A stretch of 64,000 nt of DNA from Marsupella aquatica (Eukaryota > Plantae > Marchantiophyta). Positions 1,794 to 64,000 of this stretch are shown here, piece after piece. The position numbers were made by a program, and so were the translations under genes. A model generated the notes under the pieces. It was not told the origin of the DNA, did no database searches, and saw nothing but the letters and a program-made list of their open reading frames with translations. The DNA lies in the NCBI GenBank assembly GCA_973895155.1, contig OZ316896.1, positions 13,186,549-13,250,548 of the forward strand, in the 5' to 3' direction. Position 1 is the stretch's first letter; each line of letters begins with the position of its first letter.

Positions 1794-3623
1794 ATGCCTC
1801 GAATGTCTAATTGCCAAAGAGCAATGCAGCCTGTGAAAGAGATGTTGATGTTAAATATAATACTGCACAGTTCTAGTGAAGATGAACTACATACCGGGAG
1901 TGAAGGCGATTGTAGTGATGCTACAACACCCACAGACTGTACGTCTGACAAAGATTTTTATTCATCATCTGACTCCGAGGCTACGGCAAACATGTATGAC
2001 CTTGAGGGCAATTCAGATGACCTGCTTGAGTTGTACAGTGTAATGGAAAACACCAGATATTTTGTTGAGAAGACTATCACCATCAAATCTCGGGAGTTTG
2101 TCTTGCAATTTTTTGATAAACTTCCACCTTGGTTATTCAGGCAGATGGCCAGAATGGACAAAGCCTCTTTCTTTGCTTTAGTACACCTAATTGAGGATCA
2201 TCCAGTTTTTGTCAATGATTCACCATATGAACAGGCTCTAGTGGAATGGCAATTAGCTGTTACCTTGGATCATTTGGGACATGAAGGCAATGGGGCTCGT
2301 CTAAATTGTCTCATTCCAACTTGGGGAGTTTTTTTGTTGTTGGAAAAAGGGGAGCACAGGGCCCATCAATAACAAGCACGGGGATGAAGGCCACCCGGAA
2401 GGAAACAAAAGGGCCCAACACCCGGGCCATAGACCCCAGAAACACCAACCCTAGTCAGGCCAGAGAGCCCCCGAGAGAGCCCAACACCGCCACCACAGAT
2501 TCTCCACCCTGGAGATCCTGGAATTCATCAAACTACACTTCTCCTTTCCCTCTCTATGACTCCTATGTTTTCTCGTATTACCCCTAAGCTGACACTTATC
2601 ATTGGTGTCCTCATTGAGGTGCTTCCAGTCATGATGATTCTCCTGTCTACTACCCCTCTTGGGATTCTTGTCCTTGCGAGCGCAATGCCAACCAATATGT
2701 CCCACACGCTTACGGTGTTGGCTACTAACACAAAAAAACATCCTGTCAGTCATCATTATCGTCCATTATCGTCCAACTTGGGGAGTTAGTGCAAGATCTC
2801 TCTGTAATTTCACAACTCATTGTTTTATTGCCATGGAAACTGCATTGAAGGACCAGTTGAGATGGCCTGATCGTACTGAAAGACAAAACATATCAGAGGG
2901 GTTTTCAAAGAGAGGCTTCCCAGGGTGTGTGGGCCTCATTGATGGGACTCTCATTCCACTTTCCCAATAGCCAAAGGATTCTGGAGAGTGCTACTATGAT
3001 AGAAAGTGTCAGTACTCGATTAAAGCGCAAGTTATTTGTGACCACAAAGGGAAAATCCTTTTCCTTTACACTGGTCAGTGTCTTCTTCATATGTCTCTAG
3101 TTTTACACATGAGTACATGGTTTTTCATTGTTGGGATTGACATTATTTCACTGCTATGACAAGTATGCCTGGTTCTTGTTCAGACGTGCAATGCTACAAG
3201 AAGTTTTCACTATTCCGCAGACAAAATGATGGCATTCTCTTTGACCGTGGTCAATACCTTCTCGGAGACAGTGGGTATGCGTCCATGCCACACCTGGTTT
3301 CCTCATACAAAAGGACAAAATGCAACTCAGACCATGAAGACTTCAACATGTGTGTAGCCAAGTGCAGGGTAACGAATGAGCATTGCATTGGTGTCCTCAA
3401 ATCGCGGTGGTACTCCCTTAGAGAAATGCGAGTCCAATTGAAATCAAAAGCAAACAACTTCTTTCTAGTGAGGTGGATTGTAATGTGTGCACGGTTGCAC
3501 AACTTTGTCATTAATAGGAACGACCTCTGGACTGATAAGGATGAGGAGATTACAATTGACAATGTTCACTCAGAAGATGAAGGTGTGGATTTCATAGTAG
3601 ACCCTCGACCTCGACATGGTTGA
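1794..3623 (+). pseudogene. PIF/Harbinger (HARBI1-like) DDE transposase, inactivated
   Basis: Motifs FRQMARMDKASF, QLAVTL, GFPGCVGLIDGT, YYDRK, GS.SD, YLLGDSGY, RVTNEHCIGVLKSRW and LHNF are present. It is disrupted by an insertion (2331-2771), an in-frame TAG (2968-2970) and a probable intron ~3074-3162 whose acceptor appears mutated. Confidence 0.9.
2331..2771 (-). mobile_element. 5'-truncated non-LTR (LINE-type) retro-insertion with 16-bp TSD
   Basis: TCCAACTTGGGGAGTT occurs at both 2315-2330 and 2772-2787. The minus strand ends in a CAACAACAAAAA tail. Removing the insert plus one TSD copy restores the transposase frame LIPTWGV-SARSLCNF. Confidence 0.8.
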
Positions 3624-20083: not shown

Positions 20084-20405
20084 TGAGCCAGGAGACTGTT
20101 GTTAGCTAGACACTGGTGGTTTTAAATTTCTTTTGTTTTTTATTATCTTTTATATTTTTTGTGTTTTTTAATGACTCCAATTGGCTAGCAAATTTGATAG
20201 CAAAAAGAGGAGTCCCAAAAAGGGATGTTATCAACAAGGTCTTTGAGCCAGGAGACTGTTGTTAGCTAGACACTGGTGGTTTTAAATTTCTTTTGTTTTT
20301 TATTATCTTTTATATTTTTTGTGTTTTTTAATGACTCCAATTGGCTAGCAAATTTGATAGCAAAAAGAGGAGTCCCAAAAAGGGATGTTATCAACAAGGT
20401 CTTTG
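20084..20405. repeat. Apparently perfect 160-bp tandem duplication
   Basis: GAGCCAGGAGACTGTT... starts at both 20085 and 20245, and the two copies read identically up to CAAGGTCTTTG. Confidence 0.9.
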
Positions 20406-32029: not shown

Positions 32030-34929
32030 ATGGCAGCGGGCACGGATATTACACACCCTGTGAGCGCATTAGAAGGAGTTTACAAATCCCGTCCTTTGGA
32101 GCCCCTACCGCTCATCAAGGAGAATGGCACTGCCCTGGATAATAGTGAGTTCGCGGCGTCGGAGCAGCAGCAGAACATGACGACTACTGATCGTGAGGCA
32201 CCGAGCAAACCGCCAAGGCCAACTGTTATGGAATGCCCTCTGTCAGGTGTTAGGCGCTCAGTCAGCACCACTCACATCACCTCGTTGCCTTCTTCCTCTG
32301 ATTTGGTATGTATGGTCTTGTTCCTTCTCTGGCTCGTGGGAGTGGTTGGCAGGTCTAGTCGTCTGTGCTGCTGGTTCTTGTGCTTCATTCTGTGGGCCGA
32401 TTGCTCTTGTCCTTGCTAACCCTATTTTTGCGTCCGCTTTAAGTAGAGGGACAAAAGCGTACTTCGAATCTGTTCGTGAGTATGCGATCCCATGTCATTT
32501 CCCAGGTGCCCTAATTTTATGGACGGATAGATTCGTAGCAAACGCTGGATAGGCTGATTTTGTACACTCCGAGCGGATTCCCCGACGATCATCTTTCCGT
32601 GACGCAAGTCTAAGTCTTCATGCCTAGCAGCGCTTCCCGTTGCGATGAACCCACGAGTCCTCTCTACAAGTCGGTGTCTTCGCGTCGATGCATATTGTTG
32701 GCCAACTAGAAGATTTCTCGCTGTATTTTCGGGGCCCTGAATTCGTCAAGTAGAAATGCTCTCGCTGTTGCTTGTGATGACATAGCTTCGGGGCTGACTC
32801 TCCGCGTGACCCTCTAGGCTTCTTGCTTTCCACTCCCTTCCCATTCTGGTTATTTGTTGACTGTCCAGTTGTTCTTTACAGCTTACAAGTTTTGTATAAA
32901 GTTTTAAAGGATAGAGGAATCATTGCTTGTGCGGGATCTCGAGTAAGTTGTCTCTAGGTAAGGCATATTGTCATGTTGATGGGGATTGCCATCCTGGTTG
33001 ACGGATACATACGGGTGCCGGAGACTACTGTTCAAGAAGATGGGACTGCCTGTCTGTAGAGCGAATGGTCTAGTTACAACCGGAGTCCATGATGTGGGTT
33101 TGGTTCTTATGATTGAGATTGTAGACTGTGTCACGGCTCCTTGAAAGTCCCCCTTGTTTTGCTGGACGTGAGCCTGCGGCAATCAGACGCACAGTGAAAG
33201 TTTTGCTCGATTCCATGATTTAGCTCGTCTCATAGGATTGAGCTCCACTACATGAAGTGTAGTATAACCTCATGTCAACACTCATGTAATCAAGGTGGCC
33301 CTGAGTGCTTCGACGTTACTTACTATTGCCATTCTTCTGCTCCAGGTCGAGAACAAGACAAGTGACCCTCCTGCAACACAGATTGTTGATGTATTGAATG
33401 GGGAATACATTCCAGTAATTCGGTCAGGAGGATGGATGGATATTGGAATTCGTAAGAGCATGGAAGATACCCATCTACGCATCGACGACCTTGTCGAACA
33501 AGCTGGTTCACTTCTCATAAGTGAAGCACCGGGCGCATTTTATGGGGTAACGTCTCAATGCCGATTAACAAGATTGTGGAAGTAAATTCTTGCTAGTTGT
33601 ATCTCTTTTATCTATGGACACAAATGCGTATCACACATGTCATTTAGAGACTTACAACTGTAATTACGTGTCGTGATGTGACAGGTTTTTGATGGACATG
33701 GAGGCAAGGAGGCAGCTAGTTTTGTTCGAGAACATTTGCTGACAAAAATCCTAGAGGATGTGGCATTTCCAACATCGATGGATGATGCCCTTAGGAACGC
33801 ATTTTTGCAAACGGATCTTGCCCTGGTCGACGAAGAGTGGGCCTCAGGCACTACTGCCCTCACGGCCATGGTCTTTGGAAGGTATTTATTTCATTGACTT
33901 AATGCACAGTGAAGTGGCTATGGGTTAGACCAGGCCACTAATTTTCAGCACAGTTTGCAAATGAAGATGTTTATATTTTTTCTGAAGAGTGGTCCTTTCT
34001 TTACTTTTGCCGACATCGAACGAGTTTAGTTCTTTTTTGGTTTGTCGGTTGTGTTTTATTTACTGTCTCTTGCAATATTGTTTTGCCACCTCATGTGGGT
34101 TTTACTTTCTTAGTACAACAAAATCTCACGAGCTTTTTGTCAGCCCATTTCAGGAATAGACTTACCCTTGATCCGGACGCGTTGTTTAAACCTCTAAGTG
34201 CTGCGTTTTGTTGTAACAGAGCAAAATCGGTCATCTTGGGCTTTCTTAGTTTCATCTCGTTTTGTCCTTGAAATTCTGCGCTTTCACATCCACAACTGAC
34301 GATCGTTATTTGGTCAATTGATCATCTTTTGCAGGACTCTACTGGTAGCGAATGCTGGGGATTGCCGTGCCGTCCTTTCGAGACGTGGAAATGCCGTGGA
34401 CATGTCCAGGGATCACAAACCGGGATCTTCTTCGGAAAAGAGTCGCATAGAGGCCGCTGGAGGATATGTGTACGACGGGTATTTGAATGGACAGTTGGCT
34501 GTCGCCAGGGCACTTGGTGACTGGCGAATTACAGGTCTTAAGGAACCTGGAGGTGCCGGACCTTTAAGTGCAGAACCTGAGGTGCAGCAAGCGATACTTA
34601 CGGAAGAGGATGAATTCCTCATCATTGGATGTGATGGCTTATGGGATGTCTTTACGAGCCAGAATGCTGTGGATTTTGCTCGCAGGAAGCTTCAAGAACA
34701 CAACGATCCAGAGCTCTGCTCCAAAGAGTTGGTTGCTGAGGCACTGCGGCGGAACACTTGTGATAATCTAACAGTTGTCACAGTTTGCTTCTCACCAAAT
34801 CCTCCACCGAAGCCGCAAGTGTATATCGCACCAAAGCCGCAAGGATATGTCCCAAGATTTAGGAGGAGTATATCTGCAGAGGGCTTGAAAAGTCTGCAAG
34901 GCTTCATTGATGGTTACAGTCTTAGTTGA
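32030..34929 (+). CDS. Protein phosphatase 2C (probably clade G-like), 4 coding exons
   Basis: Exons 32030-32305, 33346-33546, 33685-33881 and 34335-34929, all GT-AG and frame-consistent. PP2C motifs: [55 protein letters not shown]. Confidence 0.95.
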
Positions 34930-37371
34930 TTTACGCAGGGTTCTGAGGTTCCAAACTTAAACCTTCTTTCCAATTCGTCGTGACCGAGGGGCTAGTTTCG
35001 GATGTTGCACAGATTGGATCTGATTAGTCGGTGTACATTACTCGTAATCGGGTGGAAGGTAGATCCTGGGATTGCGAAAGATTTTTTCTGATTATCAACC
35101 TATCCGTGCAAAGATTAAGGGTCACAGGAACGGGACTGTCGACATTGACCTCCCTGGGCAGAGGCACTCCTGTTTTGACACTTGAATGAGGCATGTATAT
35201 TCAGGCTTTATTTATGTATCATAATTGAGTCAAAGACTCTTGATTATTTGGGAATATGGAGGAAAAGCAAAGTACCTGTCCCGAGGCAGGGAAGGATCGC
35301 ATCAGTACGTTAGAGCAGGAAGAGGATTCGGTGGATCAAGTATATCACGGATGTTCGACGGGCATAAGTTCCCGGTTTTTGTTCGTGAGTGTTCGTAAGT
35401 TCTCGCTTGAAGGTGCTTGAATCCCTCACTCAGGCGTGTGCTGCTTCTTGGATGCTTTGGACATCGCGAGAATGAGTGATTGTGCGCAAGGGAGCACACT
35501 GGGACTTCGACAATGATGAAAGAGACAGTAGTGTAGGAGATGAACGAGTGACAATGTTGTATGGAGTGGGTTAATATCATAGTGGATTAATGTCCATGAG
35601 ATCCACTCTGGTAGACCTGCACATGTTGCACCCCAGTTTTGATGACTGCAGTTTGGGTATTTTCCCCTCGCCCTTGTTACTAGAATAGAGGAAAGTAGAG
35701 GTAGGACATACGTAGAGGGGATATTGACAGGCAATAAGAGTTGAAGTTCTCAAGTCTACTAGGGACTGAAGAAGCGCTCTCTCAAAGATGACTCTTCCAA
35801 GGAAGCTCATTTGTATGGTTTCTCTTTGGACTAATAAATGAAACTTGTCCTTCAATTTGAGTACCGTGGCAGCTTCGTAATTTGTCTTTCGTGGTTGAAA
35901 GATCACGCGTGTCAATTGTTTTGCAGATTTTGGAGTTCAGGACTTTGACTGGTAAAGAGAGTGATTTCTTAGTCAGATGTCAACCAGGTAGGTCTCTCTC
36001 CCCCCTTCCTGAGTAGTCAGAGTTGGTGTATTGTGCCACACTTTCCCGATGACGCAATTTCGCATTAATTCGTTGCAATTGTTTGTTCACCTAAGGCTGT
36101 TTCTAATGCATCTAGCTTCTAGTAGGCTCTGTGGTGTTTGATGGTTTCACCAGCACTGAAATGATTCTGTCATGTACCAACGGGACAAATGTGCTGTGTC
36201 TGAACTTTCTGGGTGTATGTGAGCGGAAAAATGCTACGCACGCGTAATTCGGATCCTTGGGCCCGGTTGCTAATCACAAATTCAGATTTTCAAAATCCCT
36301 TCATACTTTTGAGAGTCGAATTGTTGAGCTGTTGCCGTACCCTCTCTTTAAATAACTAATCTCACCTGGCACACATGTTTGAGCAGATTTTTTTCAGTCT
36401 TGTCCATTAATAAGCTTGAAGTTCATCTTCTGTTGGGTAATTGAAGATAGTGTCTGGTTTACGAAGGACCCTGCGTTGGATTGGAATTGAATTTTGTTGG
36501 CTGAGGTTGTATTGTCCGGGTCCGGATGTGGATTTATATATGTCGGGTCTTCCTGACACATTCTTAGTGCCGCACAGCACCTTAGTCCTAGATTCGTATA
36601 TTATTCTGCATCGTAACCTACCCTTCACAGTGAACTGTTTTGGCTGATTACCAGAGTGGAATGATCTGTGGCAACCTGCATTGCCGTAACTATACACCTT
36701 TGATAACTTTTGACAGAGGCAACATATCGTTGGAGAGTCAACGAGAGTGCAAGCAGGGTTAGTGTATCATTCATGGTGCAACTCACAGGTGATCTGGAGA
36801 AGCGCCAAGATCAACCGGCTTAATCTACATTCAAGTCACTCAGTTCACATACGGTCCACTTTGTTGACTGGGTCCACTGTGACCCAGTCTAGCTTTTGGG
36901 CCCGACGCGTCCTTCAGAGTGGGCACATTGCCTCAGTTTGACATAACTCAGAAACTTGTCTAGCGCTAATATTGCCTTACGTTACCTTGAAAAGCCTTTG
37001 ATGTTCGGCCTGCCTTATGTTTCCGTCTTTGCATGAAAAATTGGATGCTTCTTTTCATCTAACGACATGCACAACACATCGCACATGGCGCAGCGAGACC
37101 AGTGCAATCGCATAAAGCCTTTGAATTTGAGCGACAGTTATGTCGGCCCAAGTTGGTGCAAGAACCCAGCAATAGAAATGAGGTGAGTCAAGGACATACC
37201 AACACACGGGGACAAGTGCTGGCCGTCAGAGGCTAGGATCATAGTGAGAGAATTCACTCACCTGGCAACTGTTGAAACCCATACAAACGTTTGGTTCTCA
37301 TGGTTGCCTTCTGGGCAGTTCCACTCTCAAGGACTGGGATGTTTCCAAGGGAGACAAAGAAATGCGAGTGT

Positions 37372-37815
37372 TCAAGATTACAGCCAGAGATCCTGCGCCC
37401 TATGACTCAAATGAGTCTTGAGCTTTTACAACAGGATCTAACGAACTGTATCTAATTTGTTGTTCTAGTTGCAGTGTTCGAGACTCGAGGGCTGGGACTA
37501 CAGTTAGCATCCAAGGTAGGAAACGAGATGCCAGTAGTCAACATCACAGCCAGAGATCCTACACCAAATGACTCAAAGGAGCTCTGAGCATTTACAACAG
37601 GATCTGACGAACTGTATCTAATTTGTTGTTCTAATTGTAGACTTTCGAGACTCGAGGGCGGGGACACAGTTAGCATCCGAGGTTTGCAACGAGATGCCAG
37701 TAGTCAAGATACAGCCAGAGATCCAGCAAATGCCTCGAATGAGCTGAGCATTTGCAGCAGCACGAGACGAACTGTATCTAATTCGTTGTTCTCACTGTAG
37801 ACTTTCCAGACTCTC
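37372..37815. repeat. ~166-bp tandem repeat, about 2.7 copies
   Basis: CAGCCAGAGATCC at 37381, 37547 and 37712, each followed by ACGAACTGTATCTAATT.GTTGTTCT. Confidence 0.9.
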
Positions 37816-39247
37816 CCACTGCTAGCTTTATCCAAGCACTGAAAGACACTGGGAGTCTGAACAGATGGGAATGAGGAATTGGATGAGACACTGACGGAGA
37901 AGACCCTCTTACGTACGACCCGACTTTGCGAAATCCTCAACCGAGAAGCTAGGAGGTATTTTTTACTGGGCAAAAGCTTACGTGTCGAACACAAGATTTT
38001 ACGCCGGTCACCATTCCATCAATTCACCTATTTGTTGAAAGACTTTCCAGATGTCACACTCGATTCAAGTTTGCTGCGCTCTGTGGAATGAAAAACTGAT
38101 TGCACAATGTAGACCACAACGTTTAGAACTTGCATTAACTCTCGTCTACTAGTTCAATTTACACTAACCACAAAGCAAATTTCTGCGAGGGGTGCAGTAT
38201 TTTGGCTTCCCTGTTCCCTGCACTTCATTGTAAGCTTTTTAAGGCACTATTGATCAGCCCGGAAGGACTTGAGGACACGAGAAGCGAGTGAAGGCTCTGT
38301 TGTCCATCCACTCCCATTACACAGTGGAGGATTGCCCTGAAGTACAAACGGCTCACATCTTGCCAAACATTCTTGCCCCAAATTCCACACTTCTTGTCCA
38401 ACATTCTTGCTGCTTAAAAGGCCACAGGGAGTTATTCGGAAAACCTTGCAGCGTCTAGGAGTTTACCTCTGAAGGGATTGGGCCAGGCTTAAAACCAGGA
38501 TTCGAAATGGGAAGATCACATACGGTGAAGCTCACCACGAGATGTCAATGGCCTTCGGGACTTGGGATGGACTCTGGCAAATTCACGAAGATCTGCTCCA
38601 AGTTCAGCCAGTCCCACCCCGTCCACCATAAGACTTTCTCTTCCTCAGGTTTTGAGGCTGTGCTACTTCTAGACTGATAGGTTCTTTCTTATGACGGACC
38701 CACTGTATGGGACCCTGCCGGTCCCAGACCACTGGCCGGTCTTTGGGAGTGTGCTACTCTTGCCGTAGTCTCCAAATTGCTTGTTTGGTTTGTCTCTTTA
38801 GAGACCCAGTCTCTCACCTGGTTCCGGCATGTCGACCTCTGGTCCCCTTGGGTTGGTGTCTCTTTTGAGGCCCCCATTTTTGTATGCTGACTAAATGAAT
38901 GGAATTCTTTGGTTTTTTCGAGGCAAAAAAAAAAGGCCAAGCTCTTTTAGGGCTGCTGAGACACAGCCCTTCCATCTTTCCTGGTCAGATTCTATCCTTC
39001 ATTGTGACTTCTGTTCCAGTGGGCGTAGGAATTCTGATCCTTTCCCCCTTTTAAGGAACAAGTCATTGAAGAATGACAATTGCCAAGCTTCTGATCCCTT
39101 GCCTTGCAACAGGCAACTACTTGAGACTACATACCTTGTAGTCAAGTCTGATAATTATCAACGTTGGGACTTGGGGACAAGAAAATCTCTCAGTTGACAT
39201 TGGGCAAGTGTGTAGAAAACCACAATATGATTTAGATCCGGCAAGTG

Positions 39248-39543
39248 TGTAGAAAACCAGAATATGATTTAGATCCCTTGCTTAGACCTTCAACAGAAGA
39301 TCGTTAAATACATAAGAGAGGTGACATAGCACTGGATAGGACAGCGGGAAGCCCATGACGTGACACATTCAATAGGGAGCACAGAAAAGTAAATGCAAGA
39401 GGACATAAGTGCCACTAGGATAAAAGGCACACTGATAAATGACTGCTAATTTAATCCTAGAGGGCAGCTAGAATGGCAGCAAGATCCAAGGGAGAAGATG
39501 ACAATAGCTGACATACTATTGGTCTAGTGTAGATATTTCAACA
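39248..39543 (-). repeat. 3' LTR of copia element
   Basis: TGTAGAAAACC...TTTCAACA, a diverged direct repeat of 44826-45108. Adjacent to the PPT (CCTCCTCTT on +). Confidence 0.93.
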
Positions 39544-39673
39544 CCTCCTCTTGACCTTGGATTTCTTGACCATTGAATTAACAAACGGTTCTATACAAGT
39601 GTCTATACAAGTACTGAGCATATCTAATCCCAATCAGAGTCAAGGAGCTTCACAGTCATTGAGTAAAGTGCTG

Positions 39674-40160
39674 ATGGCGGACAGAGTTGGGAGTCTGCAT
39701 GACTCTATTATCCACCTTTGCCTAGCCTTGATGGGTTTCTTCACAGCTATAATGCAGTATTTGCATGAATTGCTTAGTCGTGACGCAGTCCCACCGGATG
39801 AAGGAGCGGCCATAGCCATGGATATTCCTTGGAATAGAGAGGAAGCTGGTCCTTCGATGGTTCTATGAAAGGGGGAGGTGCATGCATATTCGACTTTGAG
39901 AGATATGGCGCTAGTGGAAGAACCAGAAATTGAGCGTCCCAGTGATCCAATTGTGAGACGAGTTGGTATGCTGTTGTTTGCCTTTGAAGATCCCCCTCGT
40001 AGGTACTATGCAGTAGCGCGAGGTCGACGAATGGGAATTTCTATGTCTTGGGAAGAAGTTGAGCCTCTCATAGTAGGTTTCAAAGGAAATAGACATGTCC
40101 TTCAAAACTATAAGAGAGGCAATGACGTATCTAGCCCGAAAGACTGTTAGAGATCGTTGA
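39674..40160 (+). pseudogene. Extra antisense ORF of the copia element: hydrophobic N-terminal helix plus RNase H1 N-terminal hybrid-binding (Cauli_VI-like) domain
   Basis: ORFs 39551-39868 and 39878-40150 share one frame, separated by a single TGA. YYAVARGRRMGISMSWEEVEPLIVGFKGNRH continues after a frameshift at ~40097 as SFKTIREAMTYL, matching the HBD consensus YYAV..G...G.Y..W.E....V.G......KKF.T..EA..YL. AATAAA at 40230. Confidence 0.75.
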
Positions 40161-40330
40161 GATGAGTTTAGCTTCCATTTTTCTAAGGTTCCAAGCTTGC
40201 CTCTTGATGATGTATACAGATTACAATTGAATAAAAAAGTTATTTCTGTTCTATTTGAGAAATTGACTTGAGTCCTATTGTGTCTTTGTGATGCTTGAAT
40301 TTGGTTTTTGGGAGTACCTTGGTGAAGATG

Positions 40331-43300
40331 TCAGCTGACTGATCTTCTGAGGGGATGTGATGTATGGACACCTCTCCTCCAAGTACTCTCTCTCTCTCTT
40401 ACAAAATGATGGTGGATCTCAAGATGCATTGTTCTTGCATGGAATACCGGATTCTTGGCAAGCTTGAGTGCGCTAATGTTGTCACAGTGAATATTCAGAT
40501 CTTGGAGAGTAGGAGCAGCACCCGTTGTCACATCTGATTCGATCTAGGAGTTAATTGTGCTGTTGGAAGAGAACTTGTGCAAAGTTCCTCCATTAATCGT
40601 TTGAGGTAAACCCCTCTTGAGCGCAATCGGACAGAGCTTTATATTCAGCCTCTATGGAGGAGCGTGAGACAGTTGGTTGTCATTTAGAGCTCCACGATAT
40701 AGGGGCGCCGAAGAGAGTATAAAGGTGACCTCCCGTAGAGCATCGAGTATCGGGGCAGGCATTTCCCCAGTCTCTTTACTTGGTGAAGCCAAGGAGCAAT
40801 AATGATGAATCTCTATGAAAAAAATTCCAAAGTTGACTGTTGAGTTGAGGTATCTAACTATATGCATAGCGGAATCTAGATGAAGTTGTTGAGGTGAGCC
40901 ATGAATCAACTTATAAGGCTCACTACAAAAGATATGTCAGGATGAGTGTGTGTTAGATATATGAGCTTTCCTACGAGTTTAGAGTAGGATGTGGAATCTA
41001 CATCATCGGTTCCTGTTTTGGCTAAGAGAGTAAGTCCCTCTGGAAGTGGAGTGTGAACGAGACGAGATCCTTGCATTCCATAGTCTGAGACAATGGTCTG
41101 AGTATAAGGTGTTTGGTGGAGCAGGATGCCCGTACGAGAGGGCAGAAAATCAACCCCAAGATACCGTCGAATGGCCCCAAATCTTTCATCTCATATTTTT
41201 CCCAGAGCTGAGCTTTGATGGAGTCGATAAGAGAGGCACTACTGCCGATAAGGAGTAACTAAGTCATCCACAAAGAGAAGTATAAACACCAAATCTGTTC
41301 CTTGTTGCATAAAATAGAGATTTGGATCTAGTTGACTTCATTGACACCCGATGGATTGAAAAAATGTGTTGATTTCATTGTACCAGTTGCAGGGACTTTG
41401 CTTGAGTCCGTAGATAGAACGTCAAAGTCTGTAGACAAAATGTTCTTGTCCAGGTGATTGAGTGGAACTCGGGCGGTTGAAGCATGAATATGAGTTCTTT
41501 AAGGGTGCCATTAAGAAAAGCAATGACTACATCCATATGCGAGATTTGCCACCCAAGTGCAGCGGCAATGGCTACAATTAGCCTTACTGTAGGCCACCAA
41601 ACAACGGGAGCAAACGCTTTGTCGCAGTCAAGCCCTTCACGTTGTTCATTTCCCCTAGCAACAACGTGAGCCTTAAACTTGGTGTTGCCTTTGTCTCAGT
41701 GCCCATTTGGCAGAGAGGGCTTTTTCACCGGGCATCAATGGGACTAGATCCCAAGTGTGGTTTCGGTTATGTGAGTCCATCTCGGAAGCCATTGCAGAGT
41801 GCCAACACAGGTCACTAAGAGCATCATCAAGACAAATATTGTTGCTGGTGTCTGCCAAGAATGGAGTGTCCGGGATGGGATCCAAAGCGGCCAGGTGATT
41901 GTAGAAGTCAATGTGCTTGTAAGGGTGAGAGCGCAATCAAGTTGATAAGCGAGTTGGCTGTAGTGGACGAGCTCTTCGAATAATACGTGGGCAAAGCTCG
42001 GATTGGGACGGCCCATGATCTTGAGCAGAATCGAGAGCAAAATCAGACTGAATACCTGGTAGTTGTGTTGAGGCTGGTTGTGCTGGTAGTAGCTGCTGGT
42101 ACTCCTCGTAAGTATCAGAGGTCAATGGTTCAAGTGGATCAAATGACACTAGTAACTGACTTGATAAGTTTTTGAGTTGAACGAAGAGATTATCCTCCGG
42201 GGGGAATATATCTAAAATGGTCGTAGGAGGAGTGGTGTGATCAGCACTAAAGTCACCCACAATTGACTCGTCTACAACTACATCACAAGTTATCAATATA
42301 CGGTTAGAAGTAGGGTCAAAGCATCTATGAGCTTTGCTTTGGTCGTTGTACCCAATCAGAACTACTCTAATAGTCTTAGATTGAAGCTTGTTTTGCATAT
42401 CTTTTGGGACATGAAGATATGCTCAACTACCAATGATACAAAAATGATTGACGTCAGGCTTAACACCAGTAAGACTAAATAATGGAGTGCATGAGTTTAG
42501 GGCCCCGGTGCTACACTTATTGTTAATATGGTTTGATGTTCGAACCATTTCTTCCCAGAAGGTGCAGGGAAGTCTACACCCAGGGTGAGAGTACGTACTA
42601 TTCTATTAAAGTACATTTTTCACTTAAATGCAACTCCGTTCTGGTGAGGTGTCCTCGCAGTAGTGAGTTGTCTGTCGATACCTTCAGCCCGGCAAAAATT
42701 GAGAAATTCATCTGAGAGGAATTCTCCTCCTCTGTCACTTCGTAGGCATGAGATAGAAGTGGATAGAGATTTTTTTGACCCGATGCTTGAATGACTTGAA
42801 GTGCTCACATGTTTCCTCTTTTGCTTCAGAAAATATGTCCAGCTATACCTGGAAAAATTGTCTGTAATCTGAGTCATGATGTCTCGTGAACCTGTGAGTG
42901 ACGGGATTGGAAGTGGCCCACATAAATCAGTGTGGATTAATTGGAGAGGCCTAGATGATCGAGTAGAGACAGCCTTTGGAATCTTGTTCCTGGTCTGCTT
43001 AGCCTGAACACAGGTCTCACATATTTTGTGACTGATTGGAAGAATCGGTGCTCCAGTGATCAGATGATTTCTGGTCATAAAGTTGAGCCGTTGATGGATG
43101 GTGTGACCAAGACACATGTGCCATAGCTTATGCTGAGATCATCCAACTGGTTCAACAATGTGGTGCCAGGTTGAGATGGGACCTAGATGAGGGAGTATCT
43201 TCCTTGTAGAGCTAATTATCGGCAAAAAACTAGATTCTAGAGAGATTGGATATAGCTTATTCCCCAAATTACGAGTGCCAGTAAAATGAAGTCTATGAGG

Positions 43301-44740
43301 GCTTTTGCTATCAAATACATAGCAATACTTGGAGTTAAATAACACCATGTGACCTTGGTTGGCTAATTTGCCTATCGAAAGTCAATTGCGAGTAACACTT
43401 GGCACATACAAAACATCAAAAATAGTTTTATTGCTAGTGAGTTTGATACTGTATCTTGTGCCGACAATTGGCATTTTTGTACCATTTGCGGACAACACGC
43501 TTGTAATTGAGGACTAACTCGTAATATGAGAGAACTTGTCTCTATTGTTGCTGATGTGAGACGATGCACCAAAGTCCAATACCCAAGATTCATTGTTCCC
43601 ATTACTGGGGGACTGAGCTTTGAAAGCAGACATGAGTGCTTCAACTGTGAACGCTAGAGAGCTTGATTTGCCACTTTTGGAATGATCCTGATCTTCCTCC
43701 TCAACAATGTAAGTCTTTGGATTAAGATGTTTGATGTCCTTGATCCATGACTGGAGATCCTTGAGCTGATTCAAATTCATGGACTTCATTCCTGATTCGG
43801 CATTCTTGATATAGCATTGAGGTTCTAAGTGGCCTTGTCGGTTGTAGTAGTTGCAAGTGTCTCATCGATCGGCTCCCCTTCCTTGGTAGTTGAATCGGCC
43901 AGGGGGACCAAAATGACCTCATCCTCTGGTGCGCCCTCCTCTACATCGTGGTTCATCTTGTCCGCCTCTGAACTGGTCACTTGGGCGGAAAGGAGTGGCA
44001 GCAACAAGAGAGTGCTCGTGGATCCTGAGATGGTGCTGCCTCCTTTTGTACTCAGCTTGGAGTTTTTCTTTGAACTTGGTGAAGGTGGCATCTGAATTAT
44101 CCTCAGTCATCAATGCATAAGATGTAGAAATTGAGACCAAGACTCAGGCATATTTCTAAACACTATTTGAATAAGCTCTGGATTGGATATATCTTCTCCG
44201 ATGTTACCGAGGTCCATCATCATTTTTTCTATCTTTTTAAGGTAGTCTTCCATAGAATCGTTGTAAGTATACTTGAGAAACCAAAGATAGTTTTTTTGGC
44301 CTATTTTCCTCTGAAGCATAGGTGCCTGTAATCTATGTTTTAGTGCTGCCTATAGAACAGATGGAGGATCACGGACCATGAAACTTTCTGATAAGCGGTA
44401 TCATGGAAGAACAAGAAGTAGCAGTAATGATAATAATTACCCTATCATACTTCTCTTGAAGATCGAGAGAAACTACAGTTCCTCCTGCAGATGCTGATGT
44501 TGATGATGTGGAAGTCGTGGCTCCAGATGATGTTGAGGATTGCTGTTGGGCTGCACTCGTAATGTTTGTGGAGACTGAAGTTGCTCCATTGGTTGGTGTT
44601 GGCTTGACAATATCCCATAGCTTCTTCTGATGGAGAACTTGTTCAACCTTGAAGGCCCATGTGGGATAGGTTGAGCCTCCAGAGAGCTTCTCGTCATGAG
44701 TGAAAGTGATCTTGGCTGAGTCAAGTCCCTTCATCGACAT
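40331..44740 (-). pseudogene. Copia gag-pol polyprotein, many stops and frameshifts
   Basis: gag KLSGGSTYPTWAFKVEQVLHQKKLWDIV; protease WVLDFGASSH; integrase CETCVQAKQ, LQLIHTDLCGP, LRSDRGGEF, TPHQNGVA, LIGY; RT AMASEMDSHNRNHTWDLVPL; RNase [32 protein letters not shown]. Confidence 0.95.
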
Positions 44741-44825
44741 AATGGAAGTCTGAGACTTAGCAAAAGTCTGAGAGTGAGCGGAAGTCTGATAATGGAGGGA
44801 TTCCCAAAGCTGAGCTCTGATACCA

Positions 44826-45108
44826 TGTAGAAAACCAGAATATGATTTAGATCCCTTGCTTAGACCTTCAACAGAAGACCATTAAATACATAAGAGAGGT
44901 GACACAGCACCAGATACGACAACGGGAAGCCCGTGACGTGACACAATAGGGAGCACAGAAAAAGTAAACGCAAGAGGACATAAGTGCCACTAAGCACACT
45001 AATAAATGACTGCTAATTTAATCCTAGAGGGCAGCTAGAATGGCAGCGAGATCCAAGGGAGAAGTCGACAATAGCTGACAAACTAGCTATAAGGTAGATA
45101 TTTCAACA
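44826..45108 (-). repeat. 5' LTR of copia element
   Basis: Abuts the PBS (GCTCTGATACCA on +). Runs TG...CA and is followed by the TSD AAGTG. Confidence 0.93.
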
Positions 45109-47306
45109 AAGTGTTGCTTTAGACAAGCATTTGACAAAATTTGATTTCAAGAGATTCAATTGACGTGAAGAATCAATGTTGCCTAGCATGGGAGCACCTA
45201 CCTCACTGAAACCTTAGGGAATGCACTTCTCTAAGTATAGACATATGGTTGATAAATGGCGACAAAGGACACAAACTAGGGGAGTCTGGCAGTTAATCCC
45301 CAATTGCATCCCATTCATGCTCCCTCAAATTGCCTATTATGAACAAGTCACATTTGCACATCTGAGGAGTCTGTATAGTCAATTAGGATGGAAAGCAAAT
45401 AGTAAAGTGGCCTCACTCCTGTTATTTAGGTTGAATTCCTATTATCTGAGCTGGACTATGGTGCTGCTAATGTACAGTACATCTACCAGAGAAATTGGGA
45501 ACGCAACAAGGGGAAGACTCAACAAGGGACACACAGTTTGTTAGAGAAATGCACAAGAAGTGCTCTCTCTGCACATGGAGAGTATGCTATACTAGGCTAT
45601 TCCAACCCATACTCACTTGATGGGTTGAAATAGACTTTGAGTAAGATATGAACAAATTATTGACTGAACCAAGTGAAGTCCTAGCAATGGAACCTGGCTG
45701 CATGTGTGTATTGAAGGGTAGGGTCATCCAGGATATTATGGCCAGATTTTCAAATAGACAGGGAAATTATGGGGCATGGATGGTACAACATACAGCATGA
45801 GGGATGATAGAGGACTTTGAGCGACAGTTGAGGAGGGAGAGAGGAAGATTAGTTCAGCCTTCTTGTGACCAAAACACTCTTTGGCCTTGGGCCTAGTACA
45901 ATCCTTTCTTTAGTTTCATTATTAGTCCAAGGTGAATTCCAAGGAAAATGGTCATGAGCAGGCTCAATCTTTGTACCAATAAGAGTAGGGAAGTAGATGA
46001 TGCATGGTGTTCCTCTTGGAGACCCCATTATAACAACCATTGCTAAGGTACACTATGTAAGTTCTGCCCAAACTTGATAGGGACCCATTTGTTGTAGCCC
46101 AACTTGGCAGGGCCCTAAAATACAACACCCTCCCTTTTCTAATAGACGTAGTTGCTCCCAACTAGCTGTAGAACTCCAGGCGGCGGGGAAGAAGAAGGTG
46201 TGTAAGCTGGATTGTGTGCAAGGTTATCTTTTATATTTACAGGTGTGGTGCATTCCCACTAAGAGGCAATTGTGCATTTCTACCAAAAGACAAAATAATA
46301 TAGATAATTAGAATCTAATGGTGCCTAGTATAACATGTAATCTCTACTATTAACCATGGGACACTTTACTGTGGAAGGGATGTAACTCATGTGCTTGGGG
46401 TCTATTCATGGGATCTGTTTCATGGTCATAACAGTGGGCACCAAAGGATCTTGATGTGCAAAGCAATGAGCAAGACTCCTGGGCATGATTGTGTATTCAG
46501 CTCCAAAGAGCTTTAAATGCAAAGACTAACAGTAAACAACCAAAATTCCTCTACAAGCTGTCCAAATTACAAAGGATCCTTAAATAAGGTGACTAAATAC
46601 AAAATTAACTACAGCTCCTAACTCTGTGGTTTCCCACTGCCAGGCAAACTATTTGATGTTTGTTGGTTCTCATTTGCCAGTTTCCTACCACGCCATTGGG
46701 TCCTTTGGTGGCAATCTGATAGTTTTCTTAAATCTAGGGAGATCCAATAGCCAGGAATTAATATATTAAGCAGATCGTACCTAACACAAGGTATCATTTG
46801 CCACACTGGCAAATTCTATAAATAGTAAAGATTACCCTGAGCAGTGTTCCATCACTACTCCATGACAATGGCCATTGAGAGGAAAGCACATTATTTGCAA
46901 CAACAAAATAGTGCCACACAAATTCCTGCATATGAGAACTCAAGTCATCAGAGTTTTAATCTATACTAAAATTCATGATCAAAGTGTACTGTCTACAATC
47001 ACCTACTCTGCACACCAAGCCCGTAGGCCATGATTTTGCTCGTAGCAGAAATTATTTGACATTTAGACTATGCTTGTGAGTAATGAGGGGCATGGAATGT
47101 CTCAAGTACAAAGAGCCCTCCCTATGCATCCGCTATGCATAAGCCCTGGTATTTGGGCTAGTAAAACTGCATCAAGCAATATTCTGCATAGAGAAAATCT
47201 AACTGGCAAATGAGACCCGTTCTTTCTTTCTCATGGTCTGTTTACAAAATGTTATTATGACAGGGTGTCTTCCTGGCAGCTCACATATGGTAACATTTTT
47301 ACTAGC

Positions 47307-58934: not shown

Positions 58935-58967
58935 TAACAATAAACAATGTCATTCCCCAAACTTTGC

Positions 58968-61900
58968 TGTATCTTACTTATAAATCATCAACTACAAGCT
59001 CGAGTTGGGGCCTAGGTATCTTACTTATAAATCATCAACTACAAGCTAGAGTTGGGGCCTAGGCTTCTAGAGTGAAGCCTCTAGACAGTAACTACATGGC
59101 TCATCATGTGTATGGGAAATTTGAATGTCTATGATGTATGTCATATCAAATGATAATCATAAAAGTTTCTAATTATGATTTCTATTTATATTAAAAACTT
59201 ATCTCTATGACCCCACCATATTATATGTGTAATGAAAGTGTGATGTGCATAGAAAAGAGTACCATGGTATGTTATGTATGATTATTAAAATGATTATAAA
59301 CATGATAATTTTTAAAATATTTTATTAACTTTTAAAAAATGTGAATTAAAAAAATATTTTGGTGACATTTTTATTGTTTTCCCCACTCTTCACGTTCAAA
59401 GAACACGGATAATTGGTGTTAATCATATTAAAAAACATAGATTGCACATGGGAACCAGGAGGAGTAAATTTCCATTCACTCTCTTATACTTCTAAAAGAA
59501 CGTAACGTCAATGGCACAGGCAATAAGTCCCACCTAAGGGCCATCATTCTTTTCACCACTCCGACCTGTAATAAGTTTCATCTCAAAGAATTCACCCACT
59601 CAACCTTGCAATAAGTTTCATCTCAAGGCTCGTCCATCATTGTTTTAACAACTCCCCAATTCCAGCTATTTTAAGCACCCCACCTTGCAATAAGTTCCAT
59701 CTCGAGGCCCATCCATCATGAGTTTATTTAACAACTCCCCAATCCTGCTCAGGCTGCTCGAGTACATGGCACCCTGACCCTAAAATAATGCAAGGGTTAT
59801 TAAATGTAATAAACTCCAGACACTGCCCCAGAATAGGGGTCCCAGAATTGGCCGTTAGTTGATAATCAAACTCTCTTCCAAAATCCTACTTTTTGGCAAG
59901 GATCGAGGCGCCCAATAGAGGCCAGCAGTAATTAATGCGCCCCCAAAGGCAATCATTTGGTGTGCCAGATTGCCTGAAACAACTGCCGTGGCCTTTAGCC
60001 CACCCCTCATGATCTCGGATGTGTCCCCATCTTGTCCCTCCCTTAGTCCCTTCGCCACCTCATTGCTAACCATGACTATTTATAAACCCCTCTGTCAAGT
60101 TTGTCGCTACACTGGCTGCTCACTACTCATTTAGCGGACTAAATCTAGCCCATACTCGTGACCAAGATAAAGGCAAGTTCCGTCGTAATCTGGGTTGGGC
60201 AGATAGTAATTAATTAATAACAAATTGGCGGGCAAAGCCAAGATTATATCTCCCGAAAATTGTGGGTCTAAAAAATGTTGGGGCAGTTCGGGGAATGTGG
60301 AGAATGAAATTACGTTCCATTAGCCTGAAAGCTTTATATGCGGCCAAGAGTCTCCGAAATTGGGTCATGGGTTGAAATAAGCAAGGGAATGCATTGCCAA
60401 CGAAAACCAGTAAAAATAGCCTGAGAAAAACTTTTTGGTCAATCGATGGTCTCCTGAAAAGATAATGGAAACAGTAAATTGATTTTTAGCAGTTGAGAAT
60501 CATGGATCACTACGGTAATCTGGTTGGCCCCTACTTTCCATAGCAGACTACATCTAGACCACGCTAAGCTAGATAAAGGGAAGTTCTGTAGTGATTTGCG
60601 CAAACAAGTAATAATTAATTAGAAATCGGCCAACACGGCCCAAACCTGACCTCCCAAAAGCAGTGCGCTGGATAAATATGGGGCAGTTTTGGGAGAGTAA
60701 ATTAAGTTCCAAGTAGCACAGCTCCAAAACCCTTGTATGAGGCAAAAATGTCGAGAAATGCTGTGTTACTCGTTGAAATAGGATACGAACACATGTTTTA
60801 TACCTAACACAATACCAAAGGAGAAAAGGCCCCAGCAAGACACAGGACACTGGATACCAAAGGTAAGAAAATACTTGTTGGTCTGAATTTCTTTTGAGAA
60901 TTAGCAATTGAGAATTACGGACATGATTAACTCACTTCTACGAGTCACGTGTTTGACAATTAATGTTGCCTTGTAGTTGAGTGAACAATGACAGGAAACT
61001 GCTACAGCCTGTTACTCTCCTTGAATGAAAAAATTTCAAGTGTCACTAAGTACTAGTGAACCCCACTTTTGGAGGAGGATGTGTGTTAAACTCTGGAGTG
61101 GAGTAAAAGAATGTACTAATGTCACTAGAGATCTCTGTACCCCACTTTTGGGGGGATCTCTGTTAAAAGGGAAAACAAGGCCAGCAAATTTCGAACCCGC
61201 ACCCTCCCTGGCCACATTCTCACCCATCTACCATCAGGATAGAGCCCGCTGGATGTTAACAGTGGCACGTTTCACATATTTAGTTTCATTCTACGCACAG
61301 CTAACCTGCGCCGACCGGCTACCGGCAGCGACCGCCTGCACAACGGACATCATTCAATTCGATTCCCGTGACTTATAGAAGGAAATCATGATTACCACTA
61401 CTTTATCTGGCCGGCCGCTAGTTAGTAGAGTGGACTACATCTAGCCCCCACTACAGTTGTGAGCAAGATAAAGGCAAGTTTGTCGCCACTCTTAGCGTCT
61501 CTAATTTCGGAGAAAGGACTTTTTTTGTGTCAGGTTTGTCGCCACTCTGGCCAGCCGCTAGTCAGTTTAGCGGAGATGTAGAGCGCGTGAGGAAGGGAAA
61601 AGACACACAGTATCTATGTACCCACTTTATGGCCAAAACAGTACCTTGTTTTCTGACCTGCCACATCTGTAACTACTGCCACTGCAGTGGGACCCGAGCT
61701 TCACTAAATGCAACATGCTACAGTGAATCCGGGTTTTTCTGCGAACTGTGGTTAACAAACATACTCTTAAATTGGTGCCAACACTAATCTTACATAAGAG
61801 CGAGCCTCTGAACTCCATGGTGAGCAATGGATTTGTTTCTTTGTCTTTAAATAGCATCTGGGAATGGTTAATTAGTTTTGTTTGTCTCGAAAGTGATTTT

Positions 61901-63740
61901 TAAAGGGTTAATACAAGCATAAAAGATCAAGGAGGCTATTCATTTGTTTTTCTCTAGGGGAGTATAATCTCACATATAATTTGTCTTTTCTTGGGAGTAA
62001 TATCTATTTGTCAATAAAACACAGAATATAAAGGACAGAGCACACGAGTCTGCTCAAAAAGAGAAGTTTTGTCTCGAGGTAATTTGTGTCTGTTAACAAA
62101 AACACTTAGCATAAACACGGCTATATCATTGTCTTTAACTAGTAATATGGGAGTATAATATAATATTTAATTTGTTTATTTCTTTCAAGGAATTGGTATT
62201 TTCCAATAAAAACCAGAACATAATAAGGGGCACCCAAAAAGTAAGGTCGGACATCCGGAATGACACTCAGTAACCAGACTAATTTTTTAGATTGTTTCTC
62301 TTCTGCCACATTTGCCATGCTAAGAATCTTCTTTATTTATATTAATTTCTGACCTTCAGACCTCCCTAGAGTTCAAGAATACATGTCAGATTATGGTTAA
62401 TGGGTACGTGGCTAGGTGGAAAACTGCCAGGTGGAAAACATTGTGAATTTTCTCAAAAGTGACTCAGACTTTTCTGGGAGGTGAAATCTAGCAAATTTGT
62501 TCCATCCACAAGAAAGTCCCAATAACCAGTAAAGAATAAGTGGCCCAGAGACGAGCTACTGCCTCACAAACTCTGGAGCAGCTACCGAAATACACTTGCT
62601 CAGTGAGGGATACTCAGACATGACATAACTGACAGAGCTCATCATGGTTGCACTTGTTTAGCAGTGATATTTATTATATTTCAAATTGCCAAAAAACAGT
62701 ATGCGCCTAACCTAGAGACATGACCCCTCAGGCAAAAACCCTAATCAAGGGAGGAAAAACAAAGGGCCAAAAGTGAGAAAGACCAGGGCAAATATTTGAT
62801 TTGTGTCTAGTGGGATTCTGCTAGTTTATTTATGCGCCTTGTCAAAACTGTGTGACTATATATCTGGCTCTCAAGCAAATCTTATTTTCTTACATGTTAA
62901 TAGGACGCAAAGCATAGAGATATGGAACCGAGACTAGCAAACAAACCCAGACTGTTCCAGAAGTGCTTTAAAGGTGAGACAAGCATGGGGCTGGTAGTTT
63001 CCACAAAGCTAGAGGAGTTATTAGTTTTGCACCAGGCTTTTGAGGGCTGGAAATGAAACTTTGTGACCAAGCCCATTTGCCCGGTGTCACTGTTTTGAAC
63101 ATGAGAATCTGCTGAGGACACTGCATGGATGCCTTGGCCATTTCCAACCTCTGACCAGTGAAGCTGAAATCCTAGGGCCAGATCCAAAGTAAGCTTGGAA
63201 TACCATAGTGCTGGTAGACACCATGCGACAGCACAAACACGATGCAAACTGCCTGGAAAATGCGTGGTGTAAAAGAAATGTTTTTGAATTGTGTGTAGTT
63301 TTTTTGATACCTGTATCATTGGTTACCACTCATTCAGACAAAGGAATATGTCAAACAGGAAACACATTATATGCACTAGCCCCAACTACCCGTGCTTTGA
63401 ACGTGAATAGCGGGGACTACAGAAAAATGGCACCAAAATATATTCATAATTCACATTCTTTGAAGGTTAATGAAATGATCAAAAACCATCATGCAAATAA
63501 TCATTTTAATAATCAAATATAACATACCATACTCTTTTCTATGCACCCTCGTTCTATGCACATATGTAATGGGAAATAGGAATCATGACAAAAAGTATAC
63601 ATGCTTATCATTTGATATACATCATGGTCATGAGTTTTCTCATCCATATGATGAGCAATGGAGTTGCGATCTAGAGGCTTCACTCTAGAAGCCTAGACCC
63701 CAACTCTAGCTTGTAGTTGACGCATTATAAGTAAGATACA
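58968..63740. repeat. Long diverged inverted repeat (arms ~58968-59420 and ~63380-63740) enclosing internally repetitive DNA
   Basis: The reverse complement of 63670-63740 matches 59016-59085. Further matching blocks are GTGCATAGAAAAGAGTA, TGATTATTAAAATGATTAT, ATATTTTGGTG and TTCACGTTCAAAG. A 47-bp tandem duplication lies at 58969-59062. Confidence 0.8.
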
Positions 63741-64000
63741 CAAAACATACAAAGTAATATGTAACTTTTCTTTAGCAAGAAGTTTTGGGAGAAAATTTTC
63801 TAGAACTTGGGCAATGCAATGAAAGTCCCTTACAACTAAATAACACATTTCCATGGCATGGTGTCAATATTAAACTGCTTCGTCCACTTGAGTCTCATAG
63901 TCACATTTCATGGTCGCCCCAACATTGAATTCATGAATTCCAACATTTGGTTACTATCCCCTAACTCTCATTCTGCAGAGTCTTGGGTTATATTCCCATG

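Follow-up and report, generated by a model that had tools for sequence, protein, structure and literature searches.

Antisense open reading frames (ORFs) between pol and the 3′ LTR are known from plant Ty3/gypsy retrotransposons (aORF-3R or eORF-3′R; Grande gene23, RIRE2, Retand, Ogre and TatIII), where related copies retain them (PMC7264820, PMC11963269) and the literature describes their function as unknown (PMC7264820, PMC11963269, PMC4408406). The REXdb survey gives an eORF-3′R for 86% of Retand, 60% of Ogre and 1% of SIRE elements; most copia lineages are blank in that tally, and the rows for Bianca and Ikeros hold small percentages of uncertain column assignment (PMC6317226). Within copia, the extra ORF described after pol is the env-like ORF of SIRE (Sirevirus), which may encode hydrophobic segments (PMC7264820); it lies on the sense strand (74% eORF-3′F), in elements averaging 9.9 kb (PMC6317226). 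The moss copia lineage Bryco has a half-tRNA-Met primer-binding site in 100% of six elements (PMC6317226).

A second set of relatives is defined by a protein domain, the N-terminal hybrid-binding domain (HBD) of cellular RNase H1 (human 3BSU, yeast 1QHK; Pfam Cauli_VI, PF01693). Caulimovirus P6/TAV, likewise an accessory protein of a reverse-transcribing element, has this motif, together with a helix at its N terminus, in a multi-domain protein of 520 aa (PMC3836500). An RNase H-related module was also gained by Tat gypsy elements, as the catalytic-type aRH domain within pol (PMC4408406). The sole link between PF01693 and a transposon that we found in the literature is capE, a gene inside the Pleurotus ostreatus Helitron HELPO1.3 (PMC4289320).

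Here we describe an HBD gene on the antisense strand of a Ty1/copia element from the liverwort Marsupella aquatica, contained in a 64-kb stretch of contig OZ316896.1 (the window). We think it quite probable that the gene represents an accessory gene carried antisense throughout a copia lineage. Granting such a gene, the balance tips slightly towards a hybrid-shielding mechanism; overall, we assign a probability of roughly 0.45 to the reading that the protein, a hybrid binder that does not cut, protects the element's reverse-transcription intermediates from host RNase H.

The host element and its antisense frame

The element is full-length yet decayed, spanning 39248–45108 on the minus strand (5.9 kb, with an internal region of 5,282 nt; Table 1). 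Both LTRs with TG...CA ends, a 5-bp target-site duplication (TSD), primer-binding site, polypurine tract (PPT), gag–protease–integrase–RT–RNase H order and a copia-type RT place it in Ty1/copia. Pfam matches follow one another as Retrotran_gag_2, Pol_BBD, gag_pre-integrs, rve, SH3_retrovirus and RVT_2 (E 4e-20 for RVT_2). The two LTRs align with 263 matches, 20 mismatches and 16 gap columns (K2P 0.075). Although colinear with a relative that is a single-frame protein of 1489 aa (P0082), the coding region is riddled with stops and frameshifts, and the window copy is therefore old and dead. We take its primer-binding site to be of the tRNA-Met 3′-end type, unlike the half-tRNA-Met site of Bryco.

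Table 1. Features of the copia element and its antisense gene (window coordinates).
Feature	Position	Strand	Basis
Left TSD copy (5 bp)	39243..39247	.	Identical 5 bases outside both LTRs
3′ LTR, 296 bp, TG...CA termini	39248..39543	-	LTR–LTR alignment, repeat search
Polypurine tract	39544..39552	-	Purine run (element strand) abutting 3′ LTR
Antisense extra gene, ~160 codons, broken	39674..40160	+	Pfam, family profile, sister copy, unbroken homologues
Hydrophobic N-terminal helix, residues 12–30	39707..39763	+	Hydropathy, N-terminal profile, P0011 model
Acidic variable linker, predicted disordered	39764..39995	+	Composition 21% D/E; P0011 pLDDT
RNase H1 N-terminal hybrid-binding domain (PF01693), interrupted by frame change	40001..40135	+	Pfam; 3BSU sequence and fold match
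AATAAA, candidate polyadenylation signal	40230..40235	+	Sole + strand AATAAA within 39241–40400
gag-pol (gag, protease, integrase, RT, RNase H), many stops and frameshifts	40240..44740	-	Pfam; P0082 colinearity
Primer-binding site	44814..44825	-	Sequence just inside 5′ LTR
5′ LTR, 283 bp, TG...CA termini	44826..45108	-	LTR–LTR alignment, repeat search
Right TSD copy (5 bp)	45109..45113	.	Same bases as left copy

Between the PPT and the pol stop (40240–40242) lie ~690 nt, and it is here, opposite the gag-pol strand, that the original prediction placed an antisense gene. All of its landmarks are present in the sequence: the ATG 131 nt from the LTR edge, the stop TGA at 40158–40160, the AATAAA and, in the translated frame, the quoted peptides. 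The two breaks it named can likewise be read directly, as an in-frame TGA (39866–39868) and a frame change near 40097, past which the HBD residues continue in the next frame. The domain it anticipated, Cauli_VI, is returned by a Pfam scan of the window copy (E 9.4e-8; 32.6 bits, cut-off 21), the match covering 32 of 44 model positions upstream of the frame change. Together with the homologue-profile match described below, this rules out a chance ORF. A simple pattern search of the + strand over 39241–40400 gave no TATA-like match.

The surroundings of the element hold several other features. A 37-bp tandem duplication (39203–39276) takes in the TSD together with the outer end of the 3′ LTR and thus places the LTR start motif at both 39211 and 39248. 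About 4.3 kb away is a host PP2C phosphatase gene (~33300–34929, + strand; Pfam PP2C E 7e-52, last exon). A DDE_Tnp_4 transposase fragment (3141–3620, + strand, E 8e-16), presumably Harbinger-type, has two ORFs nearby (841–1539 and 1785–2369) that gave no Pfam match. Nested inverted arms of 104, 63, 59, 50 and 45 nt, 76–88% complementary and ~4.0–4.7 kb apart, occupy 58963–63745 and resemble a long-TIR or foldback element. Tandem repeats comprise three diverged units of 160–166 nt (37334–37813) and an exact 160-nt duplication (20084–20403). A 69-nt dispersed repeat in four copies (4568, 25296, 30177 and 58737; 62–72% alike) possibly represents the ends of a small transposon family.

Other copies and the homologue family

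The gene's DNA was matched in four sequencing runs from two studies (X1–X4, the latter two under a second organism label); no RNA run is among them, which is uninformative on expression. Across the gene X1 and X2 show no difference from the window, which may derive from them; X3/X4 contain one near-identical copy and one sister copy, ~89% alike. The sister bears on whether the segment is a one-off capture, because it holds the segment at the same place: a 922-nt contig, covering 39536–40475 with 104 differences to the window, extends from the LTR edge across the gene as far as the RNase H region. A repeat search of the window found no separate TSD or terminal repeat around the segment; with the segment common to the sister copy, a nested insertion is ruled out.

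Over the gene, sister and window differ at about 55–57 positions in ~500 nt and in length near 39860 (1 base), 39878 (4 bases) and 40096 (2 bases). The last coincides with the window's frame change, which means that the sister is free of that frameshift. The first two cancel each other and lie on either side of the in-frame TGA; the window copy has a 4-base tandem repeat at 39879. The original prediction had offered deamination of a CGA as a possible source of this TGA, an origin made unlikely by the flanking length differences; among the 40 of 55 sister differences listed, none is a substitution at that codon. The sister frame is likely open, with no stop created by any of the 36 differences scored (40 of the 55 being listed).

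Those 36 are what remains of the 40 listed after four were dropped: one that the two X3 contigs share, two located between the mutually compensating length changes, and one past the frame change. Thirteen of the 36 are synonymous against 28% expected, giving a pN/pS of ~0.70 that is not significant between these two copies (p 0.19); in the other two + strand frames the synonymous count is 10/36. So weak a signal is expected, since at least one copy decayed neutrally through much of the divergence, and the argument for function consequently rests on conservation of the protein.

Two further X3 contigs match just the HBD-coding part (39977–40028 and 40004–40068), and it is only this part that stays above 80% in more distant copies. 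In one X1 contig, positions 40028 and 40452 are linked in colinear order, at 80% likeness, a level prone to repeat matches. X1 and X2 also contain long contigs (8,987 and 17,003 nt in X1) that match the LTR/PPT side (39470–39657) or the RNase H side (40250–40494) at ~84% and diverge over the extra gene; these are related families whose 3′ gene is very different or missing.

Searched in full with HMMER and without a length limit, 1.84 billion cluster representatives gave 51 matches at E ≤0.001. The three-part layout that had been read from the broken frame—helix, acidic linker and C-terminal HBD—is kept in ten unbroken homologues of 137–251 aa (10/51 clusters: P0004, 5, 9, 10, 11, 13, 25, 35, 41 and 46); most of the remaining matches are HBD alone, and helix-bearing proteins as a whole span 109–251 aa. 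Pairwise identities among 13 HBD-only proteins are 26–44% in the 29 pairs whose alignment exceeds 100 columns. All 12 HBD-only proteins scanned with Pfam contain PF01693 (the homologues scoring 48–70 bits against the cut-off of 21) and none has an RNase H catalytic family. A truncated host RNase H1 is ruled out by the different layout.

A profile built from the ten homologues, the window protein excluded, matches positions 1–135 of that protein at E 1.2e-25 and nothing else in the window. When a profile of their N-terminal parts was run against 80 proteins, 14 were scored, ten being its own members; the window protein, a non-member, scored E 1.1e-10, and the next protein from outside the family reached only E 1.8. 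By sequence, then, this is a conserved gene family rather than a one-off, and the window frame is its decayed member.

Searches beyond this family returned mainly the domain. A word-index protein search with the window protein passed 0 of 8 candidates; with the family alignment it found 28 proteins, of which three had been part of the query and the others matched the HBD alone. Neither copia pol pieces nor the N-terminal helix occurred at any of 83 HBD-matching loci (80 metagenomic, 3 viral). Scanning for RT yielded no confirmed match among 27 candidates from viral contigs or 14 from prokaryote genomes. The Atlas clusters nearest P0011, which we treat as no more than a lead, consist of small PF01693 proteins, mostly from basidiomycetes (best 0.92; the family is on 67% of 153 members), and basidiomycete fungi have many small HBD-only proteins of 175–241 aa. 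PF01693 is also found in a fungal Helitron (PMC4289320), so HBD-only genes are not confined to copia elements.

This breadth bears on a passenger origin, in which a gene captured from the host or from another mobile element drifts in one copia family, its distant homologues sitting elsewhere in the genome. The pN/pS value would suit such a gene, as would the Helitron capture (PMC4289320), and two of the homologues (CAM6091789.1 and CAM6101554.1) are annotated at NCBI as genes of Calypogeia fissa, a leafy liverwort; the copia position itself was traced only in the window and its close copies. Against drift stand the shared position in the sister and probably in a more distant copy, the segment's lack of a TSD or terminal repeat of its own, and the persistence of the HBD part alone. 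Transduced genes, moreover, are usually in sense orientation (PMC7264820). Contig sizes are indirect evidence in the same direction: those of P0004 and P0009 (5,467 and 5,180 nt) resemble the 5,282-nt internal region of the window element. The 5,232-nt contig of P0082 leaves ~760 nt free, comparable to the window. For the homologue P0008 and for the RT protein P0081 (81% identity with the RT piece in the window) the longest contig measures 2,904 nt in each case, a match noticed after the fact whose coincidence a rough simulation (15 x 5 lengths) puts at ~2%. We accordingly consider a passenger unlikely, and an accessory gene of the copia lineage remains our preferred account of the family.

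The hybrid-binding domain and its possible role

The antisense gene's domain is that of RNase H1 by sequence and by predicted fold, hybrid binding itself being a prediction. The human HBD was matched by sequence at E 3e-14. An AlphaFold2 model of the homologue P0011, made from a ten-sequence alignment, comprises a helix (residues 2–42, pLDDT ~95 in the core), a linker (43–94, pLDDT below 50) and a confident small domain, which overlays 3BSU, the human HBD bound to RNA/DNA, with an rmsd of 0.6–0.7 Å over 45–47 columns. In human numbering, Y29 and F53 are present in 13/13 homologues and W43 in 12/13; position 59 is K or R in 9/13, and K60 is kept in none (S, A or M instead). W43A and KK59/60AA are reported to compromise hybrid binding (PMC10639055), and the uniform loss of K60 means that affinity or specificity may depart from the human HBD. 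A tree of 144 HBDs over 46 columns, built by a quick method, has 7 of 140 branches starred and does not point to a donor of the domain.

The leading helix is less uniform. Its 19-residue hydropathy is 1.85 in the window protein, 1.85–2.68 in nine of 11 proteins, and 1.09 and 1.51 in the other two, both below the usual transmembrane level. It bears a small-residue stripe, with an arginine after the core in 6/10. It may span the membrane, lie along it or pack on a partner; pairing of two N-terminal helices was predicted with a score of 0.03, which speaks neither for nor against, and an Atlas look-up with the first 60 residues of P0011 gave no usable match. The linker in unbroken homologues varies from 42 to 97 residues, 11–28% of them acidic.

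Reverse transcription goes through RNA:DNA hybrids. A binding domain minus its nuclease, on a flexible tether with an anchor helix, would be suited to occupying such hybrids rather than cutting them. In the mechanism that we favour, a + strand transcript would start on the 3′ LTR side and end near 40230; its product would bind hybrids formed during the element's reverse transcription, and the helix would gather several HBDs on a membrane or particle protein, adding avidity. The protein would thereby compete with host RNase H1, which finds hybrids through the same domain. One HBD alone yields a diffuse signal, three together yield foci (PMC10639055).

Several points sit awkwardly with shielding. 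K60 is replaced in every homologue, as noted above, and the pN/pS between the two copies falls short of significance. It is hard to see how a protein with a transmembrane anchor would reach intermediates enclosed in particles. Binding every hybrid alike might, in addition, impede the RNase H that the element itself encodes.

The loss of K60 would suit a protein that binds double-stranded RNA, masking the element's duplex RNA from silencing, or one that helps translation as caulimovirus P6 does. In 1998 Cerritelli reportedly found the motif to bind duplex RNA, and the antisense transcript would itself pair with genomic RNA. The best matches in a viral structure library are indeed P6/TAV proteins, yet at a TM-score of ≤0.35 over the query, and P6 is far larger than the proteins of 137–251 aa seen here. 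The RNase H-like motif of P6 and its miniTAV region overlap; a deletion in the latter blocks replication and keeps local silencing suppression, which requires the N-terminal domain D-I (PMC3836500). This weakens the suggestion, drawn earlier from P6, that the gene counters silencing, and we regard a role in dsRNA binding or translation as improbable, if somewhat less so than a passenger.

Self-limitation would use the same anatomy as shielding. A regulator of this kind would attach to hybrids of the element, or to R-loops where the element's copies sit, lowering transposition and sparing the host; reviews propose regulatory roles for antisense ORFs (PMC7264820), and a separate promoter would allow separate timing. 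The data here are silent on the sign of the effect. In yeast without RNase H, hybrids are found on Ty1 cDNA and Ty1 mobility is raised (PMC4214602), so that shielding looks pro-element and self-limitation comes out as unlikely as a passenger. Taken with the P6 deletion, the yeast data lead us to favour protection of intermediates over dsRNA binding or translation, self-limitation, a passenger and R-loop targeting.

The last of these would make the protein an integration-targeting adaptor whose HBD reads genomic R-loops and whose helix binds integrase. The reader–linker–helix layout of the P0011 model would serve it, and HBD arrays do mark R-loops in cells (PMC10639055). Hydropathy as high as that of most of the helices suggests a membrane instead, and a single insertion site is uninformative on preference; we hold this adaptor to be very unlikely.

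Returning to shielding, its most specific form is one that we put forward only tentatively: an old liverwort copia lineage may encode a dedicated antagonist of host RNase H1, combining an HBD without nuclease, a membrane or oligomerization helix and opposite-strand expression. If true, the transposon would carry its own decoy against RNase H, and the activity of an antisense extra ORF in a plant LTR element could be assayed directly.

Comparison with known systems

What antisense extra ORFs do has not been settled, most of their domains having no known function (PMC7264820). The domain found here has a ligand-bound solved structure and known binding mutants, which turns the question of function into a binding or competition assay. 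As expected from the original prediction, such a gene is a rarity in copia: the REXdb survey lists almost no antisense 3′ ORF there (PMC6317226), and a conserved one is now placed in that superfamily. The survey would have missed it, given a floor of 250 codons and a main text that names neither 'liverwort' nor 'Marchantia'; pfam01693 is absent from its domain table (PMC6317226). Our literature search, with Repbase, subscription papers and preprint supplements outside its scope, found no description of an HBD-only ORF in an LTR retrotransposon.

Like the gypsy eORF-3′R, the gene is antisense, lies between pol and the 3′ LTR and is kept across related copies. It differs in its Ty1/copia carrier, in the size of the region (~0.7 kb versus 2.9–6.6 kb in Retand) and in its domain, which is just PF01693 in 12/12 proteins where the gypsy ORFs have Transposase_28, a plant mobile domain or SMC. 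With SIRE it shares an extra ORF after pol in copia and a hydrophobic segment; here, in contrast, the ORF is antisense, the element 5.9 kb, and the gene ends in a nucleic-acid-binding domain.

Relative to cellular RNase H1, the proteins retain Y29, W43, F53 and mostly K59, whereas the HBD has moved to the C terminus, behind a hydrophobic helix, with neither a catalytic domain nor K60. The Tat aRH domain is catalytic and internal to pol; here the binding domain stands alone in a separate antisense gene. The Helitron capE belongs to one copy of a fungal DNA transposon and is described as captured, without a conserved position (PMC4289320). What is common to P6/TAV, a sense-strand gene, and the window gene is the small domain only. 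Through that shared module caulimovirus P6 is nonetheless linked to an accessory protein of a retrotransposon, and the gene suggests that host RNase H exerts pressure on plant retroelements.
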